A stretch of DNA of 64,000 nt from a bacterium. Its GTDB lineage: Bacteria > Patescibacteriota > Saccharimonadia > CAILAD01 > GCA-016700035. The position numbers were made by a program, and so were the translations under genes. Below the pieces are notes generated by a model that was not told the origin of the DNA, did no database searches, and saw only the letters and a list, made by a program, of their open reading frames with translations. Every line of letters starts with the position of its first letter. The first letter of the stretch is position 1. Shown one piece after another: positions 3-34,067 of the stretch. Where the stretch lies: positions 65,665 through 129,664 of the forward strand of contig JADZGC010000004.1 of assembly GCA_020854115.1 (NCBI GenBank), read 5' to 3'.

Positions 3-881
3 TTCTTTATAGCTGACCTTCATGCCCTAAATGCTCGACAAGACCCGGAGTTACTCCGAAGTCGTAGTCTGGATCTTCTGGCATGGCTATTGGCTTTGGG
101 TATTGATGCTGAGACTAACCCTATCTTTGTACAGTCGCAGGTATCGGCTCACGCTGAGCTTGGGTGGATCCTAAATAACTACACCACCATGGGCGAGCTT
201 TCTCGTATGACGCAGTATAAGGATAAGGCTGCAAAATCTGGTGCTGCTGGTCAGCTTGTGGCTCTATTTGACTACCCTGTTTTGATGGCGGCTGATATCT
301 TGCTATATGATGCAGATGAGGTGCCTGTGGGCGACGATCAGACTCAGCATGTTGAGCTGACAAGAGACATTGCAGAACGTATGAACAATCTGTATGGAGG
401 CAATCTGTTTCGCATTCCTACGTTCTCAAAGCCGAATGCTGCGTCGCGCGTTATGATGCTCGATGATCCAACGAAGAAAATGAGTAAAAGTGAGGCGGGG
501 GATGGATGCGTCTATTTGCTTGATACAGAAGAGTCGATAAGGCGTAAGGTGAGTCGGGCCGTAACAGATTCACTGGGCCATGTGTCGTATGATCTTGCGG
601 CCCAGCCAGGCGTTAGTAATCTGTTGGGAATAGAGAGTGAGCTTACGGGTCTGAGTATTGAGGAAGTGCTCCATAAGTATTCAGGCAGTCAGTATGGCGT
701 ACTGAAGCAGGGTGTGGCAAATGCTATTTGTAACGCCCTATTGCCGCTTCAGGAGAAATACAGTGATTTACGAGCAAATGAACGGCTGCTACTGGGTGTA
801 AGTGAAAAAGGTGCTGCTCGAGCTCGAGCGGTCGCCGATAAGAAGCTTGATCAGGTGAAGCGATCACTGGGATTGTTGTAA
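3..881 (+). CDS. trpS: Tryptophanyl-tRNA synthetase (5' end truncated by window edge)
   Basis: Frame is open from position 3 (FFIADLHAL). Motifs YPVLMAADILLY, VPVGDDQTQHVELTRD and KMSKS. Confidence 0.97.
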   Translation, partial: FFIADLHALNARQDPELLRSRSLDLLAWLLALGIDAETNPIFVQSQVSAHAELGWILNNYTTMGELSRMTQYKDKAAKSGAAGQLVALFDYPVLMAADILLYDADEVPVGDDQTQHVELTRDIAERMNNLYGGNLFRIPTFSKPNAASRVMMLDDPTKKMSKSEAGDGCVYLLDTEESIRRKVSRAVTDSLGHVSYDLAAQPGVSNLLGIESELTGLSIEEVLHKYSGSQYGVLKQGVANAICNALLPLQEKYSDLRANERLLLGVSEKGAARARAVADKKLDQVKRSLGLL

Positions 882-931: not shown

Positions 932-960
932 TTGACAAAGCATAAGTACTTTGCTATACT
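932..960 (+). promoter_or_regulatory. Near-consensus sigma70 promoter driving the orphan ncRNA
   Basis: TTGACA 932-937, 17-bp spacer, TG-extended TATACT 955-960. Confidence 0.85.
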
Positions 961-966
961 GTACAC

Positions 967-1453
967 AAGTTAGTTCATTCAAAACAAAAACAAAAACAAG
1001 CTTTCCGCAAATTTCTTTTTATCGCTTGAACTCGTAAAAAGCGATGTTTTGTATACAGTAGGGCAACTCCGACCTGCAGACACCCCCCTTGTCTCGGGTC
1101 GGGTTTCCCCTACTGTTCGAGGGAAACCTCAGAAGGCACTCGCAAGAGAGCCACATACCACCCGCTGGATAGTAAGTATCCTCACAAAAGATGACTCCCC
1201 GTAGCGATCTTTTCATACAGGATCTACATCCGTACGGATGGTAGGGAAGCAGCGACAAAATACCCCACAACGTATCGTACCTTCAGTGGAGTATAGAGAC
1301 GCGACCGTTTTTCTAGGTGTAAACTTAGAAAAGCCCCTCGGGGCAGCACGTGCCATATAGATTCGTATCTTTTTAGGGCAGATGTAGCTGCCCCGTAACC
1401 ATTTATGTTTATTCACGCATACTAATATCGAACCCGCCGCAAGGCGGTTTTTT
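967..1453 (+). ncRNA. Putative large structured non-coding RNA, family unrecognised
   Basis: No credible ORF between promoter and terminator. Dense helices: 1055-1063/1108-1116, GAGG-GAAA-CCTC 1119-1130, GGCACTC-GCAA-GAGAGCC 1135-1152, 1339-1347/1387-1395 and others. Confidence 0.6.
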
Positions 1454-1457
1454 GTTT
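1433..1457 (+). terminator. Intrinsic terminator
   Basis: CCGCC-GCAA-GGCGG followed by TTTTTTGTTT. Confidence 0.85.
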
Positions 1458-1613
1458 ATGGACATGCGCGTGAGCGAATAGCATACTTAAGCATTAAAAG
1501 AATAAAATATATACTCAAATGGAAAGCAAAAATGACAGTATTAATAAAATAGTTCAATGATCACTACATTGTACTCAGTACAAAAGGTCGATGAACCGTG
1601 CCATAATATGACT

Positions 1614-2000
1614 ATGCGACTTGCAGAAATGAATCGGTTGGTATTGCTATTGTCAGTACTAGTACTTATTGGGTTGCTCGGGATGAGCGTCACATTATTC
1701 TTTTTCTTTGCTATATCGCCTAGAGACATTGGTGGCGTTGGCGTGACGGCTTGGTTTGTCAGTCTTTTTTGCGCCTTAGTTGCAGTACTTACTCTGATTC
1801 GTTACGTATTGCGGGTTCGCAAGGTAGAGTCTCAGTATAGACTCGAGCGGCTGCGCGTGATACTAAGAAGTAGTTTTATTATTAGTCTTTTTTTGGTCAT
1901 AGCATTAGCTATGCAAAGCCTGCGAGCCTTGAGCGCAGGCGATGTAGTACTTTTTCTCCTTACTCTTGCTATAATTGAGATATACTTTCGGACTAAATAA
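1614..2000 (+). CDS. Hypothetical 4-TM membrane protein
   Basis: Four hydrophobic segments. ATG 1614 chosen because it lies 6 nt after TG-c-CATAAT. Stop abuts pheS. Confidence 0.7.
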   Translation: MRLAEMNRLVLLLSVLVLIGLLGMSVTLFFFFAISPRDIGGVGVTAWFVSLFCALVAVLTLIRYVLRVRKVESQYRLERLRVILRSSFIISLFLVIALAMQSLRALSAGDVVLFLLTLAIIEIYFRTK

Positions 2001-2002
2001 TT

Positions 2003-3007
2003 ATGATGAGACTACATAAGAAGCTGGAGAGTCTATCTACAGCTGCTAAAAAAATGATAGCGAGTGCTGATTCTGTAGAAGCGCTTGAAAAAGCGCGAGT
2101 CCAGTTACTGGGCAAGAAGAGTGAATTGGCTAGTATATTATCGCAATTGCCTGACTTGCCAATGCGAGAGCGCAAAGAAATCGGGGCGTTGGCTAATCAG
2201 CTGAGGGCAGACCTAGAGCTGGCCATCGAGCTGCGTACACAGAAGCTTATTGACTCTGTAGATGATGCCTTAAGTTCAATCGATATCTCCGCGCCAGGGG
2301 AGTTGCATATCGTCGAGCCGGGGCACATACATCCAACGCAAGCCATACTCTCCGATATCTATGATATTTTCTTGCGGCTGGGGTTTGCAGTTGCTGATGG
2401 TCCCGAGATTGAGACTGACTGGTACAACTTCGAAGTACTGAATATGCCAGCGGATCATCCTGCGCGCGAGATGCAAGATACTTTCTATATCGAGAGTGAC
2501 GGTAAGCACCCGCCACTTGTGCCGCGCACCCATACGTCTGCCTCCCAGATTCGCTATATGGAGCAAAATGAGCCGCCATTTAAGGTCATTGTGCCGGGTA
2601 GGGTGTACCGTAACGAAGACGAGGACAGAACTCATATTTGGAGCTTTTATCAGGTAGAGGGATTGGTGGTTGGTGAAGGAGTCAGTATGGCCGATCTAAA
2701 GGGGACACTCTTGCATGTCATGAAGGAGTTGTTTGGTCCGCAGACAAAAGTTCGTTTTAGGCCAAGTTATTTCCCATATACAGAGCCATCTGTCGAGATA
2801 GATGTCTGGTATCAAGAATCCTGGCTTGAATTATGTGGGGGGGGTATGGTGCATCCAGAGGTATTACGTCAGGGGGGGATAGATCCAGAGAGGTACTCTG
2901 GCTTTGCTTTTGGGTTTGGGGCTGATCGATTAAGTTTTATTCGTTATGGTCTTCAAGATATACGCGTATTGTGGCGACCTAATCTCTTGATAAGTAAACA
3001 AGTATGA
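2003..3007 (+). CDS. pheS: Phenylalanyl-tRNA synthetase alpha subunit
   Basis: GHIHP, HPAREMQDTFY, RTHTS, FRPSYFPYTEPS, GFAFGFGADRL. Confidence 0.98.
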   Translation: MMRLHKKLESLSTAAKKMIASADSVEALEKARVQLLGKKSELASILSQLPDLPMRERKEIGALANQLRADLELAIELRTQKLIDSVDDALSSIDISAPGELHIVEPGHIHPTQAILSDIYDIFLRLGFAVADGPEIETDWYNFEVLNMPADHPAREMQDTFYIESDGKHPPLVPRTHTSASQIRYMEQNEPPFKVIVPGRVYRNEDEDRTHIWSFYQVEGLVVGEGVSMADLKGTLLHVMKELFGPQTKVRFRPSYFPYTEPSVEIDVWYQESWLELCGGGMVHPEVLRQGGIDPERYSGFAFGFGADRLSFIRYGLQDIRVLWRPNLLISKQV

Positions 3008-5853
3008 AGATAGCTGTCGAAACAATCAATCGATACTTCAAGAAACCTCTATCTACAGATAGAATGGTGAGTTTAATTGAGCGCACAGAAATCGAAGTCG
3101 AAGAAATTTTGTATGCGAATAGGCTTGATCCAAAAATTATCTTAGCTAAAGTTCTGGATGTGTTTCCGCATCCTAATGCAGATCGACTACGACTAGTAGA
3201 TATAGAATATGGTGCGAAGCGACCAACGCGTGTAGTGTGCGGTGCTCCAAATGTAGCAGTCGGGCAGCGCGTAGCCTGGGTGCGACCCGGAGCTACGCTA
3301 CCGGACGGTACGCAGATTGACCAGGCAGTCATTCGCGGTGAGAAAAGCGCAGGAATGCTAGCTAGCGCCAAGGAATTAAGCATATCGGATGACCATTCTG
3401 GAATCGTCGTGCTTGATGAAGTAACCCACTCGCTTGGAACATCATTGTGCGACATTGTATTTTCGACTGACGTCCTGGATGTGAAGACGCCTGCGAACAG
3501 GTGGGATTACCTTAGCGGGGAGGGGATAGCACGTGAGCTGTCTGCATATGATCAGTCAATTCAGCTCCTTTTGCCAGAGCGAGGGGAATATACTTATCAA
3601 GACACCGATGTCGCGAAAGTCAAGGTTAGGGAAGAGAATAAGCGGTTTCTCAGTGCTCGCTTGCGATTAAAGAACGATGTCAAAACACCATCATGGCTTG
3701 TGGATAACTTGCTCGCGAACGGATTTGTGCCACATAATCCAGTCGTCGATATTACGAATTTTGTGATGCTAGAAACCGGACAGCCATCCCATGCCTATGA
3801 TGCGAATAAAGTCCGCGGTCCCCTTACTGTGCGTTTTGCAAAGAGCGGTGAAAAACTTACAACACTTGATGATGTGCATCGTACGCTCATGGATCAGGAT
3901 CTTGTGGTATGTGATGATTCAGGTCCGATCGGACTGGCTGGCGTGATTGGTGGCGCATCGACTCAAATTGACGCCACATCAACAGAAATAATTCTCGAAG
4001 CAGCGCATTGGGATAAGACTCTAGTACGCCGATCATCCATTCGACATGGTATTAGAACGGAAGCCTCGGCTCGCTTTGAGCGCAATCTCCCACTCCCCTT
4101 GCAGCCTTACGCATTTGCGCGCTTACTTGATTTGCTGATCGACATTTGTGGCGCAGAGATTATCGAAGGACCTTTTGACCAATTGCATGCCTGGCCGTGG
4201 CGACGTTTCTTGGGAGTTCGGTTGCGCCGTGCGGAACAATACTTGGGGATGCGGCTAAAGGAAGCGGAGATGGTCAGAGGTTTACGTAGACTTGGATTTG
4301 CTGCGCATCACTTTTCTCTCTCGGCCGAGCTGAAGTCACATCTTGGTAAGCCGTATAAATGGGGCGCAAATTTCCGTCAGGATGGTGAAGAAGCCTTTGA
4401 CTGCTCATACCTGGTAGATCGTTTGTATTCGAAGCTCGGTGTAGCCGTCGGACATACTGCCTTAGGTCAGCTACATCACGGTGAAGAAGTTGACTCAAAT
4501 GATGCATTAAGACCTGGTGACGTTGTGTTTTATGAGGGCAAAATTGAGAATTCTCACACCGACCACTATTACAAGACATTGCCAGATGGCTCGAAGCAGA
4601 AAGTAGTACTCAAGTCACCGGTACGTGTCGGACATAATGGTATATATCTCGGCAACAACCAGGTTATACATGCAGCCATATATAAATTTCGCAATGGGAA
4701 GTGGGTGAAGCGTCGACAGCAAGGGGTGATCATCTCTCCCCTGTCTGAGTTTGTTGATAATCCTGGCTACATCGGTGCGCGTCGCTATATTTCGAGCTTT
4801 AATCATATTATTGCGATCGAAGTCCCCTGGTGGCGAACAGACATTACATCAGAGACTGATATCTTCGAAGAAATGGCAAAGCTAGCGGGGTATGAAAAAT
4901 TGCCAGAAAGCCTACCGCAATTGCCACCTATGCCCGGCACAGCTCAGTCACAACAGGTTGAGAACATGCGGATTCGGCATGGCCTAGTACGCCAAGGTGC
5001 AATCGAGATAAATAGCTACAGCTTTATTTCCGAAGCGGATGTAAAATTGAGTCAAATACCAGAATCTCAAGTATTACGGATAGCGAATCCACGCTCTCCA
5101 GAGCAAGCGTTCGTACGTTCATCAATGCTAGCGAGTCATGCACGATTTTGGGCAAAGCAGTCGGCGCGTGCATCGTCGCTTGGCGCATTCGAGATCTCAC
5201 GTGTGTATGAGGCACAAGGGCTTGTCAAGCAGCCGAAAGAATCTTGGCGCCTGGCGATTAGTGCGCCTGGCGAGCAAGCTCTTCAAAACGTTCAAGGATT
5301 GCTCCATTCCGTGCTGTCAGATATGCGGGCTCAGGTGACGTTTCGGGCTGGTAGGCACGACGCAGACTCGATCAGAGGATTATCTGTGTATGTGCCGCAG
5401 CGCAGCGCCGGTTTGTTCGTCGGCTCGGAGTGGGCTGGTGTGATTGGCCAGCTACGCACTTCAGTACGACGAGGCTTCTCGTTGTCTGCTGATCTAGCGT
5501 ATGCAGAGGTGCTTATTGAGCTACTGGGATCAAGTCCTCGTCCGTATCCGATTAGGGCACTACCGCCCTATCAGCTCGTCACACGTGATATCTCGCTTGA
5601 GGTACCGGTGGGTGTTTGGTGGCAGGAGATTCGAGGCGCACTGCAGTCGGATAAGCATGTGTGGCAGGTGGAGTATCGAGAAAATTATTCGGATAGCATG
5701 CTACAAAAATCAGATAGACGAGTAGTGACCGTGCGACTGTGGCTAGATCTTGGTGCTCAACCAAGCCTTGATCAAATTGACAAGTCGGTGCAACGGGCGG
5801 TCAAGGGTCTTCAGATCCAGCTGAAACAAGCTGGTAAAATCAGCGTTCGATAG
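3004..5853 (+). CDS. pheT: Phenylalanyl-tRNA synthetase beta subunit with in-frame NlpC/P60 domain insertion
   Basis: HPNADRL, VVCGAPNV, GMLASAKEL, TPANRWD, VDITNFVMLETGQPSHAYD, RTEASARFER, VPWWRTD. 949 aa because of a ~160 aa insert. ATGA overlap with pheS. Confidence 0.96.
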   Translation: MKIAVETINRYFKKPLSTDRMVSLIERTEIEVEEILYANRLDPKIILAKVLDVFPHPNADRLRLVDIEYGAKRPTRVVCGAPNVAVGQRVAWVRPGATLPDGTQIDQAVIRGEKSAGMLASAKELSISDDHSGIVVLDEVTHSLGTSLCDIVFSTDVLDVKTPANRWDYLSGEGIARELSAYDQSIQLLLPERGEYTYQDTDVAKVKVREENKRFLSARLRLKNDVKTPSWLVDNLLANGFVPHNPVVDITNFVMLETGQPSHAYDANKVRGPLTVRFAKSGEKLTTLDDVHRTLMDQDLVVCDDSGPIGLAGVIGGASTQIDATSTEIILEAAHWDKTLVRRSSIRHGIRTEASARFERNLPLPLQPYAFARLLDLLIDICGAEIIEGPFDQLHAWPWRRFLGVRLRRAEQYLGMRLKEAEMVRGLRRLGFAAHHFSLSAELKSHLGKPYKWGANFRQDGEEAFDCSYLVDRLYSKLGVAVGHTALGQLHHGEEVDSNDALRPGDVVFYEGKIENSHTDHYYKTLPDGSKQKVVLKSPVRVGHNGIYLGNNQVIHAAIYKFRNGKWVKRRQQGVIISPLSEFVDNPGYIGARRYISSFNHIIAIEVPWWRTDITSETDIFEEMAKLAGYEKLPESLPQLPPMPGTAQSQQVENMRIRHGLVRQGAIEINSYSFISEADVKLSQIPESQVLRIANPRSPEQAFVRSSMLASHARFWAKQSARASSLGAFEISRVYEAQGLVKQPKESWRLAISAPGEQALQNVQGLLHSVLSDMRAQVTFRAGRHDADSIRGLSVYVPQRSAGLFVGSEWAGVIGQLRTSVRRGFSLSADLAYAEVLIELLGSSPRPYPIRALPPYQLVTRDISLEVPVGVWWQEIRGALQSDKHVWQVEYRENYSDSMLQKSDRRVVTVRLWLDLGAQPSLDQIDKSVQRAVKGLQIQLKQAGKISVR
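4310..4800 (+). other. NlpC/P60 (C40 peptidase) domain embedded in PheT
   Basis: LGKPYKWGA...FDCS (Cys467), LRPGDVVFY, GHNGIYLGNNQVIHA (His544, His556), YIGARRY. Confidence 0.92.
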
Positions 5854-20926: not shown

Positions 20927-22454
<1,528 letters not shown>

Positions 22455-22664
22455 CTAGGGAGAAAGCTGACAGGTAACTGTTTTGGCGCCTTGAGTGCCA
22501 ACAGACCGTGATTGGTTCGAGCTAAAGAGCTTGCTCTTTGTGCTCACCACACATCATGACTCTGGCTATCCTAGGTCGATCGTTCACTTTTTATGAACGA
22601 TTCCTGTCATCTTGGATACAACACTTTAGCTTTTCTATCGAGCTGACACGTTTCACTGGTCAAT

Positions 22665-22696
22665 AAAAAACACCGCCTAATTCTGGCGGTGTTTTG
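22665..22696. terminator. Bidirectional intrinsic terminator after the stand-alone 16S gene
   Basis: aaaaaacaccgcc-taattct-ggcggtgttttg. Confidence 0.8.
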
Positions 22697-22718
22697 AGTG
22701 TTTTTGATTTTTATGTGA

Positions 22719-22976
22719 TTATGTTTTGACTTGGAACATGCTGCGGATCGCATCACCCACAGGCGTGAGAATCCAGTCCCACATACCGATCATCGTGCCG
22801 ATGCCGAGTATCACGAGGCTAGCGCCTACTAGCTTAATGAACGCCGGCGTACCAGCGGTGATATGTCGCTCGACTGATGCGATAGCTCCGGTGAAGTTAT
22901 AGACTTGCTCATGAAACTTTAGGACTAAGAATCCAATCACGATCATGCTGAGGCCAATAAAAATTTGTGTAAACAT
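22719..22976 (-). CDS. Small 2-TM membrane protein
   Basis: Two hydrophobic helices. TACAAT lies 7 nt before the ATG. Confidence 0.75.
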   Translation of the reverse strand: MFTQIFIGLSMIVIGFLVLKFHEQVYNFTGAIASVERHITAGTPAFIKLVGASLVILGIGTMIGMWDWILTPVGDAIRSMFQVKT

Positions 22977-23162
22977 ATGTGCTATTGTACGGGTATTTGA
23001 GGTGTTAGTAAAAAATGGTGCCTCTTTACGCTGAGGCTCGAACCTATTTTATCTCAAAAATGTAAGTTTGTGCTAAATTGCTGCTCCGTGCGCAAATGGA
23101 AGTCCGTAGAGCCAAATGCTACCAGCCCCGCCGCCTGCGCCAGCAGAGCTGTCGCGCGCCCA

Positions 23163-23250
23163 GCCCAGCCAGACTAACTTTTTGCATTTTTTTAGATTTC
23201 CCCCGCCAAAAAATTCTTTTTAATTTAGGAAAAAGTTAGTCTGGCTGGGC
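23163..23250. repeat. Perfect 21-bp inverted repeat; related third copy at 25411-25436
   Basis: gcccagccagactaacttttt 23163-23183 and its reverse complement at 23230-23250. Confidence 0.9.
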
Positions 23251-23452
23251 CGTTCGCCTGCCATAAATGGCAAGAGACGGCGGGGTTTCGTCCCTGCTGA
23301 CTTCTAATTTTACTTAAACCGAAAGTCCGTGTCGCGAACAAAAAATAAGGCCAGCGGCTACGCCGCTGACATATGCAGTTGTAGGCAATGGCTACATGCA
23401 TAAACTAGGAAAATAGCGCCGACTATAGCACTATATCTCAAAGCGAAAAACA

Positions 23453-24526
23453 CGTATAGAACTCAGGACCTTTGCAACATTTCAGCAGGCGTCAGTAACT
23501 GCAAGCCTAAGTGTACGCGCTTAGTGTTGTAGTAGTCGAGATACGTCGTAAGCTTATCTCGCTGGCACTTAAGCGACACACTCCTGTTCCAGTAGTAGCC
23601 AATACATTCGGTTTGGATGGTGCGGTTAAATCGCTTAATGTGAGCGTTGTCATTCGGTCGGTGCAGCCGACTGTGTCTAGTAGCAATGCCATGAGACCGC
23701 ATTACTTGCTCAAAATAGCGTCCGTACTCCGGCCCATTGTCAGCTTGTATCATAGTCACTCTAAAGCCCCAACTGTCTTGAGCTTCCAGTACAGCTTGAG
23801 CCGCTCGTCCCGGACTCAGCTTTGCCGCCAGGGTAACGTAAGCCATTCGGCTGAATAAGTCTATGACTGTGTAGTAGTACAGTCTCCTACCGCTACGGGG
23901 GTCAACATGGTGGATGGTATCCGTCTCAACTAATTCACCTGGTCTCACGGCATATGGACGATGAGGGTTATCTCGTTTGAGTCGTGGCTTCCTGGCACCA
24001 TCAAAGCAGTGATGACGCCGCAGAATACGACGCACACTGCTGAGGCTAAGTCTTACTCCAAGAGTGTTTGTTACGTAATACCAGACAATCTCAGCACAAC
24101 GCATTAACTTAGCCCGGGCAGCTAGAACGAGCCTGACTGTCGCCCCGGGAATAGCATTAGGACAAGTATGCGGCCTAGAGCTTAGTGTAGCGATTCGCCA
24201 GCTACAAGCAGTTAGCTTGTGAGCTAGGCTAACCGATCGGCTAGGCCGGTTAGGGTTGTCAAATTGGACATATCGGTTAAGCTTGTCCCATTTGCGTTTC
24301 CAGCGCCAGATGGTTGAGCGATGAACACCACACTTTCTTGCGACAACAGCCAGAGGTTGTTGGTCTTCGACCAGTAACCGCATAGCGGTTGCTCTGGCAC
24401 TAGGTAAGTTAGGGTTGATAGAATAAGCCATGGTAGGCTCCTTTCTTATTAGTTGTTGATACTAACAGTTTAGGACGCCTACCTTTTTTAGTTCAATTTA
24501 GGTTGCAAAGGTCTTGAGTTACTACG
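23453..24526 (-). mobile_element. IS481-family insertion sequence with 6-bp target site duplication
   Basis: Terminal IRs cgta..aactcaggacctttgcaac and gttgcaaaggtcttgagtt..tacg. AAAACA duplicated at 23447-23452 and 24527-24532. Confidence 0.9.
23463..24431 (-). CDS. IS481 DDE transposase; third catalytic residue appears as K (NAHIKRF)
   Basis: HTH VARKCGVHRSTIWRW, RPGELVETDT, VIDLFSR, IQADNGPEY, NDNAHIKRFNRT, YYNTKRVHLGL. Confidence 0.9.
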   Translation of the reverse strand: MAYSINPNLPSARATAMRLLVEDQQPLAVVARKCGVHRSTIWRWKRKWDKLNRYVQFDNPNRPSRSVSLAHKLTACSWRIATLSSRPHTCPNAIPGATVRLVLAARAKLMRCAEIVWYYVTNTLGVRLSLSSVRRILRRHHCFDGARKPRLKRDNPHRPYAVRPGELVETDTIHHVDPRSGRRLYYYTVIDLFSRMAYVTLAAKLSPGRAAQAVLEAQDSWGFRVTMIQADNGPEYGRYFEQVMRSHGIATRHSRLHRPNDNAHIKRFNRTIQTECIGYYWNRSVSLKCQRDKLTTYLDYYNTKRVHLGLQLLTPAEMLQRS

Positions 24527-24532
24527 AAAACA

Positions 24533-24562
24533 TTGACAAATACTATATGTTTATTATAAAAT
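24533..24562 (+). promoter_or_regulatory. Sigma70 promoter of the GC-rich gene
   Basis: TTGACA-18-TAAAAT, with AAGGAG RBS at 24600-24605. Confidence 0.65.
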
Positions 24563-24615
24563 ATACCGAGTGTTTCTCAATCCCGAGAGACTCGTACCTA
24601 AGGAGTGTGAGGCAG

Positions 24616-25236
24616 ATGCCCACAGGCTACACGTCCGACCTCTACGAGGGCAAGGATGTCGAGTTCTCTGATTTCGTCATGAAGTGCGCGAGGGCGTTCG
24701 GTGCTCTCGTTGAGCTCCGTGACGAGCCGCTCGACTCGCCTGTCCCGACGGAGTTCAAGCCGAGCAGCTACCACACGGAGCAGCTCGAGAAGGCCGAGGC
24801 GGACGTCGCTCGCATCAAAGCGTGGGACGACACCGAAGCTGACCGCCAGGCACAGCTCGCTTTCGAGCGCGCAACACATGAGTACCAAGAGTCGCAAGCT
24901 CGCGAGCTCGCGATGCGTGAGCGCTACGAGACAATGCTCGCCAAGGTTCAGGCTTGGACGCCGCCCACCCAGGAGCATCGCGAACTCAAGAACTTCATGG
25001 TCAAGCAACTAGAGAAGTCCATCGACTTCGACTGCAACACGACCTACCCGGAAGTTCCGGAGCGCCTCAGCGGTGCCGCCTACAAGGAGCAGCAACTCCA
25101 TTCGGCCCGTTGGCAGGTCTCGTACCACACCGAGCACGGTGAGGAAGAGATCAAGCGAGCCAAGGAGCGTACCGATTGGGTTCGGGCCTTGCGCCAGAGC
25201 CTCACGGAGTCCTCTGACACAACTGTCGAGGCCTGA
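24616..25236 (+). CDS. Phage-type conserved hypothetical protein (MPTGYT...CARAFGA), foreign codon usage
   Basis: RBS-supported ATG 24616. 26 of the first 34 codons after the start end in G/C. N-terminal motif recalled from phage hypotheticals. Confidence 0.8.
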   Translation: MPTGYTSDLYEGKDVEFSDFVMKCARAFGALVELRDEPLDSPVPTEFKPSSYHTEQLEKAEADVARIKAWDDTEADRQAQLAFERATHEYQESQARELAMRERYETMLAKVQAWTPPTQEHRELKNFMVKQLEKSIDFDCNTTYPEVPERLSGAAYKEQQLHSARWQVSYHTEHGEEEIKRAKERTDWVRALRQSLTESSDTTVEA

Positions 25237-25332
25237 GAGCACGAAACCCTGCACATGCAGGTCGGTAGGCAGAAAGTCTAGTAAGAGATCGTGGCAAAAC
25301 CACAATCACTGAACAACTTTCTACCTACCGTA

Positions 25333-25393
25333 TAACCCGTCCATGAAGCGTAAAACAGCCATGCTGATGAGCCGTAAAGCGGCGAAACGGTTA
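25333..25393 (+). ncRNA. Type III hammerhead ribozyme
   Basis: GUC 25339-25341, stem I CAUG/CAUG, core CUGAUGA 25364-25370, stem II GCCG-uaaag-CGGC, GAAA 25384-25387, stem III uaa(c)ccgu/acgguua. Confidence 0.85.
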
Positions 25394-25410
25394 GAAAAGT
25401 AGAATTAAAA

Positions 25411-25436
25411 CCAGCCAGACTAACTTTTTCCTAAAT
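25411..25436. repeat. 26-bp exact inverted copy of 23223-23248
   Basis: ccagccagactaactttttcctaaat, 15 nt beyond the 3' end of tRNA-Ile. Confidence 0.9.
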
Positions 25437-25451
25437 CAAAAAGTTTCTTTA

Positions 25452-25528
25452 TGGTGGGCTTGGCAGGACTCGAACCTGCGACCTCGTCATTATCAGTGAC
25501 GCGCTCTAACCAGCTGAGCTACAAGCCC
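25452..25528 (-). tRNA. tRNA-Ile(GAT)
   Basis: GGGCTTGTAGCTCAG...CGTCA-CTGATAA-TGACG...GGTTCGAGTCC...CACCA. Confidence 0.98.
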
Positions 25529-25561
25529 ACAATATATGGAAGGTTTAATCGATAGATATCA

Positions 25562-25638
25562 TGGTGGAGCATATCGGATTCGAACCGATGACCCCCTGCT
25601 TGCAAAGCAGGTGCTCTAGCCAGCTGAGCTAATGCCCC
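25562..25638 (-). tRNA. tRNA-Ala(TGC)
   Basis: GGGGCATTAGCTCAG...CCTGC-TTTGCAA-GCAGG...GGTTCGAATCC...CACCA. G3:U70 pair present. Confidence 0.98.
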
Positions 25639-25700
25639 ACGATTTGTTCCTAGCAAAATACATCAAATTGATATGAATATCGTATCTGAAGAACTGGCAT

Positions 25701-25729
25701 ATTGTACCTGTTTTTTATGATTTGAGCAA
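25701..25729 (-). promoter_or_regulatory. Promoter for the tRNA-Ala/tRNA-Ile pair
   Basis: Minus strand TTGCTC-17-TACAAT. Confidence 0.65.
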
Positions 25730-25778
25730 GGTCAATGCTCGGTTGTAAAAAGTCCTCCCCCACCGTAGCATAAATACT

Positions 25779-26450
25779 ATGCAAGTGTTACTCGTAGTTG
25801 TACTGACGGCAGCCGTGTTTGGCGGCATGGCATTTTACTTACTCAGTCGCGATAATGGTCAGGAGCCTATATGGGCGCTAGCTACAGTATTTCTTATAGG
25901 GCTCGCAGCAGCTCAACTCGCAGGTGTTATTAATGACAAGCTCATCCCGTACCCAGTTGATACGTCTATCGGCTTCGTTGGCGCTTTGGTGGTGGGGATT
26001 ATCCCTGGAATCTACGAGGAGATACTGAAGAGCCTGCCTGTAGCTTTCTTTGTTGGTAACCAGTCGTTTTTTCGGCAGCCAAGTGATGGGGTGATATATT
26101 TCGCGTTTTCTGGCCTGGCATTTGGCTTATTAGAGAACATTCAATATACTGTCCAGTTTGGGGCAATGGTTGGCTTTGACCGACTCCTGACATTATTATT
26201 CTTTCATGCTGCGACAAATGGCATATTTGGCTGGTATTTCTTCCGTGCTCGTCGGCGAGGTGACTGGAAGATTGCAGTACGTGCGGCGATCTTTTTGATG
26301 CTAGCCCATGCCGTATACAACTTCTCGGTCGCATATGCTGGGGCCATCCCATTGCTTCGTATGGTCGCCTACGTGATCTCAGTTGTTCTGAGTGTGTTGC
26401 TGATTCGAGTCTATGTATTGGCGCGCAAGGACGATAGACAAGCACGGTGA
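25779..26450 (+). CDS. PrsW-family glutamic intramembrane protease
   Basis: EP.W, PGIYEEILK, GLAFGLLENI, two conserved His (FHA, AHAVYN). Confidence 0.9.
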   Translation: MQVLLVVVLTAAVFGGMAFYLLSRDNGQEPIWALATVFLIGLAAAQLAGVINDKLIPYPVDTSIGFVGALVVGIIPGIYEEILKSLPVAFFVGNQSFFRQPSDGVIYFAFSGLAFGLLENIQYTVQFGAMVGFDRLLTLLFFHAATNGIFGWYFFRARRRGDWKIAVRAAIFLMLAHAVYNFSVAYAGAIPLLRMVAYVISVVLSVLLIRVYVLARKDDRQAR

Positions 26451-26495
26451 AGTCAGTCACAATATAAGATAAGCATAACTAATTTTTGGAGAATA

Positions 26496-27374
26496 ATGGA
26501 TCCGCGTATAGCATCGGGGGATGTAATGCAGCCAGGTGGCGGGACTCCCGCCGTACAATTGAATCCAAATCCGAGTATCGGAGTGGGGGAGATTGTTCGT
26601 CCAAACCCTGAGCAGTCAGTTGCTGCCGTACAGGCGCCGGTATATCCTCAAGCGCAGGCTATGGTGGTGCCTCCTATTGCCCCCAGCCCTATGCCACCCT
26701 TACCACAAGCGGCAGCACCCCAGCCTGTGCAAAACGGAGTACCGCAAGCACCAATAATGACTGCTCCATCGCCACCTCCCCAGATGATAGTACCTCCACC
26801 GGTAGCAATGCAGGCAGCTAACCAGCCGGTACCCGCCCAGCCAATGCCGCAGCCAATAGCTCCGCAGAGCCAGCCTGCTCCCGCACAGTTTGCGCCCGCC
26901 CCGCAGCAACCAGCACCGACGGCGCTTGTGCAAGGCGCTCCAATGATGGATGCGCTTGCACCGCGCCCCGCAGCTCCCTCGGTAGCTCCGGTGGCTACTC
27001 AGCCCCCCTCGGCGCAAGCTCCAGTACCAGCTCCGGTATCCACTAGTACAGTGAAATCAAACAAGCGATCAAGCCTAGCGCTTGCCGCTCTACTTGTCGG
27101 GGCAATGTCGGTTTTGTTAGAAATCTTTATTAGTAATCAGCTGAATTACATTATCGCTGTTGCTCCTGTAAGCCTTGCTGCCATAGGGTTGGGAGTACCG
27201 GCTCTCGGGAGCCCAAGACGTGGGCTTGCAATAGCTGGCGTAGTACTCGGCTCGCTGTCATTGGTCTCGGTAATTATCCTGTTTAGTGTTAATGCGGCAA
27301 CGCAGAGTCGCTGTAGCATTAACCCGACAAGCGACCCGCAGTGCCAGGCGGTACAACCAACAGTAGGAGGATAA
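26496..27374 (+). CDS. Pro/Ala/Gln-rich protein with C-terminal DUF4190-like TM segments
   Basis: ~190 aa low-complexity region, then SLALAALLVG...RRGLAIAGVVLG and a C-x7-C tail. Confidence 0.75.
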   Translation: MDPRIASGDVMQPGGGTPAVQLNPNPSIGVGEIVRPNPEQSVAAVQAPVYPQAQAMVVPPIAPSPMPPLPQAAAPQPVQNGVPQAPIMTAPSPPPQMIVPPPVAMQAANQPVPAQPMPQPIAPQSQPAPAQFAPAPQQPAPTALVQGAPMMDALAPRPAAPSVAPVATQPPSAQAPVPAPVSTSTVKSNKRSSLALAALLVGAMSVLLEIFISNQLNYIIAVAPVSLAAIGLGVPALGSPRRGLAIAGVVLGSLSLVSVIILFSVNAATQSRCSINPTSDPQCQAVQPTVGG

Positions 27375-27378
27375 TAAG

Positions 27379-28695
27379 ATGTCAGTACAAACTATAGATA
27401 TGCGTCGCAGCCCAATCGGTGCCGCAATTATATGGGGTTCAGTAGGGATGGTGTTGTTACTCTGGGCTTTGGTAGTACCTTTGCAGGGTCGCGTGGCGAA
27501 TAGCGCTGTTATCTGGAAGAGCCTCGCAAATATCGGAGCATTTGCCGGCACAATCTTATACAGCTGGTCGGTAATCCTTTCGGCTCGGTGGCGTTGGGTA
27601 GAGAAGTTATTTGGGGGGCTTGATAAGGTCTATCATTGGCATCACATTACGGGTGGCCTGTCGTTCTTGCTTTTGGCCCTTCATCCTTTTTTCTTGACCA
27701 TCCGACTAGCGGGTATTCGTCCGGATAAGCTTAGCTCGCTCTGGGTGCTCGGATCGAATTGGCAGCTCAATTTTGGCATAATCGCACTTTATGCAATGCT
27801 ATTGATTCTGCCGGCCACTGTGTTCTTGCGTCTGCGCTATCAGGTCTTTCTCTGGATTCATCGTATTCTGGGCCTGGTCTTCTTTTCAGGCTTCATCCAT
27901 GCTTTCTTGGCAAGCCAAGGCAACTTGGCGAAGTCGCAGCTGCTGTGGTGGTACGTGATGGTCTTTTGTCTGCTGGCGGTCTACGCCTTTTTCTATCATT
28001 CGATACTAGGGCGATTCGTGCCAGGACGGTTTCGTTACGCAGTCGCACAAGTGCGCAAGCATGGTGACTCGACAGTCGATATTATCCTTGAGCCAAAAGG
28101 GCGCTTGATGAACTTCATGGCTGGCCAATTTGCGTTTGTGAGTTTTGTCGGACATCCGATCAGCGATGAGGCGCACCCGTACTCCATGGCATCGTCGTCC
28201 CAACAGAGGCAGCTACGGTTTATCGTCAAGGTGCTCGGTGACTTCACGGCTTCCTTGTTGGCACTGAAGCCAGGGACGACGGCATACATAGAGGGCCCGC
28301 ATGGCGGCTTCACTTTTCGGCATGTGCGTGGCTCGAAGCAAGTATGGATTGCCGGCGGGATCGGCGTCACGCCATTTCTCGCTATGGCGCAAGCACTGCC
28401 GTCGAAAAGGTATTCGGTTGATTTTTATTACTGCACACCCTCCAGTGCGGAGGCGTATTTCATGCCTGAGTTTCAAGCTATAGCCAAGCGCAATCCAAAC
28501 TTCCGTCTACATCTATTCTGTCAGGATAAGGAGGGATTTTTGACCGCCGATATTCTGTCGAAGCAACATGACTGTCAGCGGACTGACTTCTTGATTTGTG
28601 GTCCGCCGCCGATGATGCGAGCGATACATGATGGCTTGCGCAAGCAGGGCGTGGGCGAGAAGCATATTCTCTATGAGGACTTTGGTTTCCGCTAA
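27379..28695 (+). CDS. Ferric reductase-like transmembrane domain plus FAD/NAD(P)-binding oxidoreductase
   Basis: FGGLDKVYHWHH, paired TM His, HPYS, VKVLGDFT, EGPHG, AGGIGVTPF, CGPPPM, terminal EDF. Confidence 0.92.
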   Translation: MSVQTIDMRRSPIGAAIIWGSVGMVLLLWALVVPLQGRVANSAVIWKSLANIGAFAGTILYSWSVILSARWRWVEKLFGGLDKVYHWHHITGGLSFLLLALHPFFLTIRLAGIRPDKLSSLWVLGSNWQLNFGIIALYAMLLILPATVFLRLRYQVFLWIHRILGLVFFSGFIHAFLASQGNLAKSQLLWWYVMVFCLLAVYAFFYHSILGRFVPGRFRYAVAQVRKHGDSTVDIILEPKGRLMNFMAGQFAFVSFVGHPISDEAHPYSMASSSQQRQLRFIVKVLGDFTASLLALKPGTTAYIEGPHGGFTFRHVRGSKQVWIAGGIGVTPFLAMAQALPSKRYSVDFYYCTPSSAEAYFMPEFQAIAKRNPNFRLHLFCQDKEGFLTADILSKQHDCQRTDFLICGPPPMMRAIHDGLRKQGVGEKHILYEDFGFR

Positions 28696-28733
28696 TCCTT
28701 GGGGTCGAGCGGGCAATCTGTCATAATGATGGT

Positions 28734-29432
28734 ATGGGCCAAATCAGTGATTTCCTATATGCGTATCAAGCCCAGTCTGATGCTGAGCGGGCGATTATTA
28801 TCTTGCCCGAGATCTTTGGCGTCAAAGACTTCACGCGTGAGCTGGCAGGCAAGGTACAGATAGAGCTCGGCTGGAATGGGTATGTGCTTGACCATTTCTA
28901 TGCTGTAACCGGTGAGGTGCAGACTTTTGCGTATGACGACATGTCGGGGATGGAGATCATGGAGCGTATGACTGGAGAACTATTTTTGCCATTATTGGCG
29001 CAGGCAGTTGGCATGATACAAGAAGCGCAGCCCAAACTAAAGCATCTTGCGGTCTGGGGATTTTGCTTTGGGGGCAAGCTCGCGTATCTCTCGGGAGTTA
29101 ACCCCCATGTGACCGATATTGTTTCCTGCTATGGTGGCGCCAGTGTGCAACCGGGATTTTATGCAGGCGATTCGGTGGTCCAGGCATTAGCTCGAGCACG
29201 CTATGCGGATAAGAGTCTCAAGATCTTGGGTGTATATGGTGAGCATGATCCAATGATTCCTGCAGCTGATCGAGAAAAAATATCTACATTACTTACTGAA
29301 TCTAAGATCTCACACCAGATCAAGGTGTATGACGCTGGCCACGCATTCTTCAATGAGGATCGAGCAGATCGATATGTCGAAGCTGCGGCTAAAGCTGCGT
29401 GGAATGATGTGTCAAACTGGCTTAAGCGGTAG
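28734..29432 (+). CDS. Dienelactone hydrolase family protein
   Basis: EIFGV, GFCFGG nucleophile elbow, GEHDP, AGHAF. Confidence 0.92.
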   Translation: MGQISDFLYAYQAQSDAERAIIILPEIFGVKDFTRELAGKVQIELGWNGYVLDHFYAVTGEVQTFAYDDMSGMEIMERMTGELFLPLLAQAVGMIQEAQPKLKHLAVWGFCFGGKLAYLSGVNPHVTDIVSCYGGASVQPGFYAGDSVVQALARARYADKSLKILGVYGEHDPMIPAADREKISTLLTESKISHQIKVYDAGHAFFNEDRADRYVEAAAKAAWNDVSNWLKR

Positions 29433-29445
29433 TACCGGCAGTTAA

Positions 29446-30141
29446 TTAAGCGCCGAATCGACGCTGTCTATTGGCGTAATCTTCTAGCGCAGCTGAGAGG
29501 TCAGTTTCATCGAAGTCCGGCCACTTCTTGTCTATAAAGTAGAGCTCGGCATAAGCTGCTCGCCAAAGCATGAAGCCACTAAGGCGTTTTTCACCAGAAC
29601 TGCGGATAATCAAATCGACTGGTGGGACATCGGGCACGTATATATTCTGGCTGATTGTTTCCTCAGTAATCTCCTCTGGATTCATGCCAGAACGTACAAT
29701 CCGCTTCGTGGCATCAACGATCTCCTCATGGCCGCCATAGTTTAGACACAGTACGAGTGTTCCGTTTGTATTATTCTTCGTATGGTCCTCGGCTTTTCGG
29801 ATAAGCTTGAGAATTTTTTCTGACAGTCGATCGTCATTGCCGGCAATACGTATGCGCACACCCCGAGTGTGGATGTCATCGAGCTCATGCTTCGCAACCC
29901 ATTCGAGTAGTTTCATGATAAATGCAACTTCTTCGGTGCTGCGCTGCCAGTTCTCGCGCGACCACACATAAGCGGTGACGTATTTGACGCCGCTCTCGAG
30001 GGTCTTGAGGCCTATTTCTTTGAAGTTTTTATACCCCTGACGGTGGCCTTCTAGGATAGGGAGGCCCTGTTCTTTTGCCCAGCGGCGGTGACCGTCAAGA
30101 ATAAAGCCGACGTGGGTCGGGATGTGTGATTCGTGTTGCAT
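29446..30141 (-). CDS. uppS: Undecaprenyl/polyprenyl diphosphate synthase
   Basis: PTHVGFILDGHRRWA, SRENWQRS, LNYGG, DLIIRSSGEKRLSGF. Likely true start is MQHESHIP. Confidence 0.96.
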   Translation of the reverse strand: MQHESHIPTHVGFILDGHRRWAKEQGLPILEGHRQGYKNFKEIGLKTLESGVKYVTAYVWSRENWQRSTEEVAFIMKLLEWVAKHELDDIHTRGVRIRIAGNDDRLSEKILKLIRKAEDHTKNNTNGTLVLCLNYGGHEEIVDATKRIVRSGMNPEEITEETISQNIYVPDVPPVDLIIRSSGEKRLSGFMLWRAAYAELYFIDKKWPDFDETDLSAALEDYANRQRRFGA

Positions 30142-30222
30142 ACGTGTATTTGTGAAACCATTATATCCTACTCGAGCTGCGACAGAAGTCAAACACCATC
30201 TGATTTTTATCGAGAAATAGTA

Positions 30223-30252
30223 TTGACCCCGGATGTGCAGTCGTGCTACCAT
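30223..30252 (+). promoter_or_regulatory. Probable promoter for the 23S-5S transcript or the upstream structured RNA
   Basis: TTGACC-18-(TG-extended)TACCAT. Confidence 0.5.
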
Positions 30253-30589
30253 CGTTGACAGGTATACATAAGGAGTAGTCCACGCGTGAGTAACCGATCC
30301 ACATTTGGAGGCACCCGCCACTAAGCTGATTTTAGCTCGGGGATTCACGCGTGGCCGCCTCAAAAAAGCGCCACGTTTTTATTTTGCTCATTGACATAAG
30401 CATCTTTGATAGTAATCACTGATTCTAGCCGACGACTATCAAATATAAGGTGCGATCATAGAGAATAAGGGTAATACAAATGTGATTTAATGTTAGAGAT
30501 AGTAATAGTAAACCAGCTTGCGATTGTGGACTGGTTATTTCTAACGAACCGACAACGCACTTGAAAGAGTGTGTTAGTCATCTCAAACG

Positions 30590-33784
<3,195 letters not shown>

Positions 33785-33951
33785 TTGCGTGACATTGTGT
33801 GATGAATTCGTTCTTCATACAAGTCACAGCATGAGACGGCTAACACGCTCTTGAAGAGTGTTGTCGAAATAAGTCACGTTTGTATCTTATTCTCTATGTG
33901 TGCCAATGAGCATCGATCTGGTAGCTTTGATTTACATTGAGGAGACATCGG

Positions 33952-34058
33952 ACCGGTGCTTATAGCGAAGAGGTTCCACCGGTTCCCATCCCGAACACCG
34001 AAGTTAAGCTCTTCTGCGGCGATGATACTGCTCTGCGGGAAAGTAGCGCGGTGCCGGA
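33952..34058 (+). rRNA. rrf: 5S rRNA (short, ~107 nt)
   Basis: CCCATCCCGAACAC.GAAGTTAAGC, GATGATACT, GGGAAAGTAG. Terminal helix ccggtgc/gtgccgg. Confidence 0.93.
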
Positions 34059-34067
34059 TTTATCATG

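Follow-up and report, generated by a model that had tools for sequence, protein, structure and literature searches.

A conserved, structured RNA gene of an uncatalogued class in Saccharimonadia, most persistently found beside a gene for a four-helix membrane protein

Results

An RNA gene between trpS and a membrane-protein gene

The stretch of DNA analysed here, referred to as the window, spans 64,000 nucleotides of a 790-kb, 99.5%-complete genome. Near its start, and all on the + strand, lie the 3' part of trpS (3..881; Pfam PF00579, E 1e-53), a non-coding RNA gene (967..1453), a gene for an unclassified four-helix membrane protein (1557..2000, with its start likely near 1608-1614), pheS (2003..3007; Pfam PF01409 and PF02912) and, next after pheS, pheT (3004-5853). 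The start of the RNA is predicted from promoter spacing and its end is placed at a U-tract. A promoter-site search identified a sigma-70 promoter, TTGACA-17-TG-TATACT (932..960), which is conserved in the homolog alignment and, with 11/12 matches, is the best of five promoter-like sites within 800-2100. The RNA ends in an intrinsic terminator (1434..1453), consisting of a GCAA hairpin (1434-1447) plus the U-tract. Both signals had been proposed in an earlier note on this DNA and both hold, as does its view that the region carries no credible + strand ORF: the longest within the RNA region are 51 and 40 aa, and no conserved ORF was found across homologs. Short upstream ORFs occur just after the A-rich strand in some relatives, namely seven-codon uORFs ending Pro-Pro-stop (MPHIKPP, MKSAIPP) in L034, L037, L069 and L070 (family f4) and L024, L027 and L028 (family f6), and 14-codon uORFs ending Asp-Pro-stop in genus g12.

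The RNA gene is a stand-alone unit, since its promoter and terminator are conserved and the gene downstream has a -10 element of its own in 31/53 loci. A promoter-like site lies upstream in 93/94 short-form loci with enough flank, and a terminator-like hairpin within 150 nt in 75/85 long-form homologs. In the window, the extended -10 element TGCCATAAT (1599..1607) is placed as a predicted promoter from which the membrane gene and pheST would be transcribed separately. We also considered AGCATAAG, located in the spacer of the RNA promoter, as a dedicated operator and rejected it; with 59 occurrences in the genome it is not specific to this promoter. Genome-wide, it often lies in AT-rich gaps near promoter-like sites and may be a nucleoid or regulator motif.

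Predicted fold

The region 960-1460 has a predicted folding energy of -169.8 kcal/mol (z -7.69; 0/100 shuffles equally stable), in line with its earlier description as highly structured, and ten long forms scored z values between -8 and -17 when compared with a rough dimer shuffle. Mean pair probability is at least 0.95 for the helix 1021/1045, the basal helix of 1055-1116, the hairpins 1119-1130 and 1135-1152, AAAAGAT/ATCTTTT, TTTCTAGG/CTTAGAAA, 1339-1395 and the terminator. Most of the helices listed in the earlier note are thereby supported; the exceptions are GGATA/TATCC (probability 0.0) and the CTAC..GTAG hairpin, because a long helix, 1156-1183/1223-1243 (probability 0.84-0.98), displaces both. 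The mutually exclusive pairing of 1102-1109 with 1121-1128, also suggested there, has probability 0.0. It is found at full strength (-15.4 kcal/mol) in 2/86 homologs, the window and one same-genus genome, with a weaker version (-9 to -11) in 19 further homologs, and being genus-specific and disfavoured it was rejected as a conserved switch.

A predicted long-range helix between 1000-1006 and 1244-1250 closes the central domain (1000..1250) with a probability of 0.99 in the window, and across homologs 44/86 beat the shuffled mean. Hairpin P1 (1020..1046) carries a conserved UGAACUC loop, and a variable multi-helix domain (1119..1334) includes a conserved GGAUGGUAGGGAAG block (1236-1249), both assigned from the homolog alignment and pair probabilities. 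Pairing of the window's A-rich strand with the U-tract has a probability of 0.46.

Conserved elements from the 5' motif to the 3' stem

A boxA-like motif, GUUCAUUCAAAA (973..984), follows the promoter in 68/89 long-form homologs, compared with 3.1 ± 1.7 in shuffled sequences. It is close to the rrn boxA, the NusB/NusE site, given in a passage of PMC13753749 as AUGAUCUUUGAAA for B. subtilis and UGCUCUUUAACA for E. coli, and to GATCTTTGACAA in the 16S leader of the source genome; the two f59 genomes carry CCTTTGACAA. However, the commonest form, GUUCAUUAAAAA, breaks the CUUU core, and the motif is not evident in the shortest forms and can also base-pair internally. NusB is encoded in the source genome, in which Rho was not found. 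Nucleotides 972-977 can also pair with the loop at 1027-1032 in a predicted pseudoknot (best pairs 5.24 versus 4.89 ± 0.08, 54 loci), which probably corresponds to the short form's 5' helix.

The A-rich single strand AAAACAAAAACAAAAAC (981..997) is common to long and short forms (72/86 and 81/94, respectively), bearing out the A-rich 5' segment of the earlier description. This 5' strand (AAAACAAAAAC) is, together with the 3' bulged stem, among the most widely shared parts of the RNA, and the doubled A-rich motif has only two occurrences in the source genome.

The long hairpin P2 (1055..1116) consists of a basal helix AGUAGGG:CCCUACU, which resembles a Shine-Dalgarno (SD)/anti-SD duplex, and a 7-nt C-rich loop (1083-1089). 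In the alignment, 97.8% of its cells are paired, compared with 35-55% for slid controls, and its covariation score was reached by 0/500 shuffles. The C-loop is one letter off the anti-SD and the pyrimidine strand has one mismatch to it; family f7, which is without the C-loop, has the exact anti-SD ACCUCCUU in 7/8 loci, the same letters as the 3' end of the source genome's 16S. The most widely shared element is the 3' bulged stem (1339..1401), with an AU-rich apical loop (17-22 nt in short forms) and a lineage-specific GUAACCA tail (51/86 homologs); across 34 class members 96.3% of it is paired. Two-sided changes occur in 7/18 pairs of P2 and 6/12 pairs of the 3' stem, counts that are inflated by related sequences.

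Because of this inflation, and because the search pattern fixed the 5' strand only, the short form is the cleaner pairing test. Among the matches listed, 105 of 107 distinct short-form loci have a 3' strand that complements the 5' strand at 7 or 8 of its 8 positions. The first variable position of the stem is A-U in 83, G-C in 15, G-U in 6 and A-C in 1, and the second is G-C in 61, A-U in 36 and G-U in 8; both covary (Fisher p 1.5e-12 and 1e-20), in loci that are not phylogenetically independent. Covariation, proposed earlier as a check, is thus present in P2, the 3' stem and the short-form stem. In the shared plan, a 5' helix encloses or precedes the A-rich strand; inserted domains may follow, then come the 3' bulged stem and usually a terminator. 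The core is the A-rich strand plus the 3' bulged stem, onto which lineages add helices.

Distribution and size

BLAST matches to the RNA were obtained in 55/101 relatives, and none indicated a paralog within the source genome. Searches with three covariance models, all trained on Saccharimonadia long forms, found P2 in 55/60 genomes of the order (40/41 high-quality ones) and in 85/151 class genomes, and the 3' stem in 102/151 class genomes, so the suggestion that homologs be sought across Saccharimonadia was fruitful. Order genomes with a P2 match have one locus each; where a second match appeared, it was this hairpin read on the opposite strand. The 86-locus counts leave out the mis-extracted L132, L142 and L153, and L130, L139 and L140, which were not extracted. 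The RNA is present in most Saccharimonadia families. For families missed by the P2 model, inspection of the DNA upstream of the membrane gene revealed a diverged RNA, recognisable by its A-rich 5' element and 3' stem, in f7, f12 and the 15 inspected f11 loci; the same inspection revealed none in L180 (f8), L189 (f13) and L190 (f9). In G068 (L137 / L244, family f13) P2 and a 3'-stem-like match lie ~1.1 kb apart, with very AT-rich DNA between them and at a distance from the membrane gene, which we read as a decayed or very long version of the RNA. L040, a 1.7-kb contig titled Bacteroidetes that is probably mis-binned, carries a copy typical of family f4.

A short form, ~140-170 nt as cut out, occurs in families f14, f16, f19, f23, f29, f33, f36 and f37, and a metagenome scan yielded at least 120 loci; among the matches listed, those with a recognised 5' hairpin have a median length of 138 nt (n=41). 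Long forms measure 246-577 nt to the end of the 3' stem, and overall length ranges from ~135 to ~580 nt. The attribute 'large' (~490 nt) is therefore correct for the window's lineage and fails elsewhere.

Outside Saccharimonadia, two models match 12 of about 142 sampled genomes, of which 10 were judged real on inspection, that is, with a promoter where the flank shows it, an A-rich strand or C-loop hairpin, and a 3' stem, which is least clear in G263. Chance model matches (G261, G290, G070, L056, L087 and L088) were dropped from the counts on inspection. As the models were trained on Saccharimonadia, the RNA counts as 'not found' rather than 'absent' in other Patescibacteria genomes, and phylum-wide presence is an extrapolation. 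In a viral collection, 12 and 3 pattern matches were obtained, none a full RNA by filter or by eye, and we took them as chance; a loose pattern search gave matches no more numerous than its control.

Neighbouring genes

The four-helix membrane gene is the most persistent neighbour of the RNA. Among the matches listed, it lies directly downstream in 95/107 short-form loci, where the diverged proteins are homologous to the long-form neighbour, and it is again beside the RNA in 3 genomes of other lineages. Upstream, trpS is replaced in homologs by rmuC, lysA-like or other genes, and in short-form lineages pheS is lost from the locus while the membrane gene persists. The position 'between two aminoacyl-tRNA synthetase loci' is accordingly accurate in the window (trpS, pheS), whereas neither is a stable neighbour. 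In 7/10 outside loci the RNA has other neighbours, in one case followed by a convergent gene, which indicates that it is not tied to one downstream gene. In other lineages the membrane gene is tied to pheS in most loci shown, with the 3' stem nearby in 0/17, so plain inheritance of gene order explains the link between RNA and membrane gene equally well.

The protein itself has ~125 aa and a four-helix model (pLDDT 92), with P, G, T, W, F, D, E and Y at invariant positions, and it occurs in 173/301 phylum genomes, mostly immediately ahead of pheS. Searches of Pfam, NCBIfam and PDB gave no match. Fold comparison, by Foldseek alone, returned look-alikes in the Atlas that belong to unnamed clusters, commonest in Peregrinibacteriota and Moraniibacteriota.

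Several other elements lie around these loci. A tmRNA gene is within about 1 kb upstream of the RNA in L191, L197 and L199 (family f11), and RNase P RNA and tmRNA lie 10-22 kb upstream in the source genome, G000. On the opposite strand upstream of the RNA, L235, L240, L242 and L249 carry a second conserved leader-like element, again an A-rich strand plus hairpin, which in L242 precedes a gene whose product resembles IF3. In the window, 16S (20927-22454) and 23S (30591-33785) are unlinked, 8 kb apart (region 20927-34059), each with a separate promoter-like site and with tRNA-Ile and tRNA-Ala between them on the opposite strand. Elsewhere, ARAGORN reports a tRNA-Asn with a 547-nt insertion at a contig end (G000:C13:39548-40169), and an identical stretch near the end of C10 and at the start of C13 (G000:C10:9763 and C13:90) suggests that these contigs probably overlap.

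Expression

Part of the stretch occurs in 20 runs from 8 studies, 17 of them recorded as RNA, and the 8 examined comprise 7 RNA runs (5 studies) and 1 probable DNA run. All seven RNA runs contain a near-identical contig that lies inside the RNA and has its edge at 1120 or 1121, immediately 3' of P2; the RNA contigs cover 1120-1354. By contrast, the contig of the probable DNA run crosses that point (1006-1240). These RNA-run contigs, which show neither strand nor level, hint weakly at a transcript with a stable hairpin. One RNA run additionally contains trpS and pheT pieces, and we did not count the lack of neighbour-gene contigs in RNA runs as evidence of expression rank. The term 'abundant' in the earlier note has weak support from RNA contigs of five studies, in runs that were selected because they contain the stretch.

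Comparison with known RNAs

In scans against Rfam, neither the window stretch nor 40 homolog loci nor one short form gave anything near the gathering score on the RNA; being conserved and covarying, with a predicted promoter of its own and no Rfam family, it belongs, as first proposed, to an unrecognised class. The reported lack of RNase P, tmRNA, SRP and T-box signatures was likewise confirmed: no RNase P P4 or tmRNA T-arm motif was found in 86 homologs, and the SRP helix-8 motif (symmetric loop, GNRA tetraloop) and the T-box sequence, both searched as motif patterns, each occur in 0/86. G000 encodes RNase P RNA and tmRNA at other sites, and two full-length tmRNA matches with unlike sequences were obtained in it, G000:C4:56438-56831 (101 bits) and G000:C12:52100-52442 (92 bits); the second is ~1.2 kb before nusB and seems to have stops right after the usual resume position.

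OLE RNA (RF01071) gave no match up to E 10 in the window and homologs or up to E 5 in further loci, and one further search was blank, with its control also without a match. No match to SRP RNA (RF00169) was found in the source genome. A 6S RNA (RF00013) match was likewise lacking in the source genome, in a search whose control was found in only 5/14 genomes, and in 40 other loci; neither long nor short forms adopt a 6S-type rod with paired ends and a central bubble. On the features tested, the RNA thus fails membership of OLE, SRP, 6S, T-box, RNase P and tmRNA. A literature search, of listings and abstracts and largely outside subscription journals, found no description of this RNA, and in the text of bioRxiv 10.64898/2026.10.21.760802, supplements apart, one passage was found, on an unrelated repeat cluster.

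Discussion

The features described above identify a stand-alone structured ncRNA gene, a unit with a conserved fold and one locus per genome in the order. For its function, the explanation we favour, at a rough probability of 35%, is that the RNA acts in trans as the scaffold of a membrane-anchored RNP that acts on translation, analogous to OLE RNA and non-homologous to it. Both are large multi-helix bacterial ncRNAs whose gene adjoins a small membrane-protein gene. According to passages of PMC12054373, OLE RNA binds bS21 through P6, a helix of AGUAGG with CCUCCU that mimics an SD/anti-SD duplex, and its partner OapA was first found through co-location with the OLE gene. P2 pairs SD-like AGUAGG with CCUACU, and the OLE strand in that source is also AGUAGG. 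The SD likeness of P2, the A-rich strand and the boxA-like motif suggest a scaffold that engages translation and is synthesised in the manner of stable RNAs, and the persistence of the membrane gene in short-form loci that have lost pheS and trpS hints at a partner. In such a particle, the four-helix membrane protein would bind the RNA, probably at the 3' stem, and tether it to the membrane. P2, through its SD/anti-SD-like helix and C-rich loop, and the A-rich strand would contact the 30S subunit or free bS21, the unstructured A-rich RNA being a plausible landing site for ribosomes or proteins. The boxA-like motif may load NusB/NusE while long forms are synthesised, and overall the particle would link translation to the membrane or to stress.

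Several observations weigh against the OLE-like scaffold. We infer binding, localisation and phenotype alike, and the synteny with the membrane gene may simply be inherited, the two being separate in most of the outside loci. G-rich/C-rich helices easily look like SD duplexes, the short form lacks P2, none of five conserved segments has a complement of more than 7 nt in the source genome's rRNAs, and the boxA-like motif usually departs from CUUU in a genome in which Rho was not found. The RNA also differs from OLE RNA in phylum and in having a ~135-nt form. OapA is a 21-kDa MpfA-like protein, whereas the ~125-aa four-helix neighbour resembles neither the OapA type nor any other family in Pfam, NCBIfam or PDB. 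The co-occurrence of bS21 is uninformative because it is near-universal (148/151 class genomes).

An SRP substitute unrelated to SRP itself, in which an ancestral housekeeping RNA and the lineage-specific four-helix protein would capture ribosomes through the SD mimic and A-rich strand and dock them at the membrane, appears improbable to us. It draws on the Ffh M domain being found in 0/301 phylum genomes (controls 14/14), and no Ffh/FtsY GTPase domain scored above cut-off in G000; since Ffh was found nowhere, its co-occurrence is uninformative. The likeness to SRP RNA lies in the housekeeping-like spread, the short and long versions and a ribosome-membrane link that we infer. No statement on SRP loss in Patescibacteria was found in the literature checked.

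Two rival explanations, both unlikely in our estimation and on a par with each other, assign the RNA a regulatory role. In the C-rich-loop sRNAs of Bacillota, such as RNAIII (about 500 nt) and RsaE/RoxS, a C-run exposed in a hairpin loop acts on G-rich ribosome-binding sites, and the C-rich loop of P2 could similarly pair with such sites in trans and repress translation. The unpaired loop is a C-run in long forms, other lineages included (the count of 86/86 is circular, since the search was anchored on the loop), and the ~500-nt ncRNA is similar in size to RNAIII. SD sequences are used in the source genome (AGGAG before 53/590 ORFs versus 15.0 ± 3.4), and no fully conserved cis partner competes for the loop, AGGGG occurring elsewhere in the RNA in only 23/86. 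However, the loop is dispensable in whole families, being missing from f7, f11, f12 and all short forms, so that the shared core, stem plus A-rich strand, offers no seed. In addition, the exact complement AAGGGGG precedes only 3/590 ORFs in one genome (0.7 expected), and there is no Rfam match. Alternatively, the RNA could be a cis-acting leader or attenuator whose conditional read-through controls the membrane gene and pheST. In almost every Saccharimonadia locus it precedes the membrane gene; among the short-form matches listed, the start codon lies a median of 111 nt beyond the search motif, and only 56/82 loci show a hairpin-plus-U signal. A leader role may therefore apply in short-form loci without an obvious terminator before the membrane gene, and the window's A-rich strand has the capacity noted above to sequester the U-tract. 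Against this, an antiterminator is not conserved (4/66 loci at p<=0.05, mean energy equal to shuffled), T-box sequence is lacking in all 86 homologs, the membrane gene often has its separate promoter element, and the RNA is unlinked from that gene in outside loci, one of which has a convergent gene next.

A functional stand-in for 6S RNA, binding RNA polymerase, seems about as improbable as an SRP substitute. The strong promoter, single locus, wide conservation and lack of a 6S match in a 99.5%-complete genome (subject to the 5/14 control) would fit, but the rod with a central bubble is missing from long and short forms, and the 40 other loci lacking a 6S match count against it. Least probable of all those considered, and by some distance, is an mRNA that encodes a micro-peptide (e.g. 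MPHIKPP) or serves as a sensor through ribosome stalling. Some genomes of families f4 and f6 have an ATG after the A-rich strand, and several of the peptides end Pro-Pro-stop or Asp-Pro-stop with third-position variation; yet the start codon is missing in the window, in most of family f1 and in most long forms of other orders, and lengths and frames differ among homologs. The remaining probability falls to functions that we did not foresee.

Very few bacterial RNA genes are widely conserved: RNase P, tmRNA, SRP and 6S. Saccharimonadia genomes mostly measure 0.5-1.3 Mb; that they keep an uncatalogued RNA at a single locus, and that this RNA can be followed into other lineages of the ultra-small Patescibacteria, suggests a core function. 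Its natural size range, 135 to 580 nt, delimits the smallest core for structural studies. With no SRP or 6S RNA detected in the genome and Ffh found in none of the phylum genomes searched, the RNA and its neighbour make the question of how membrane proteins are targeted in these organisms a testable one.
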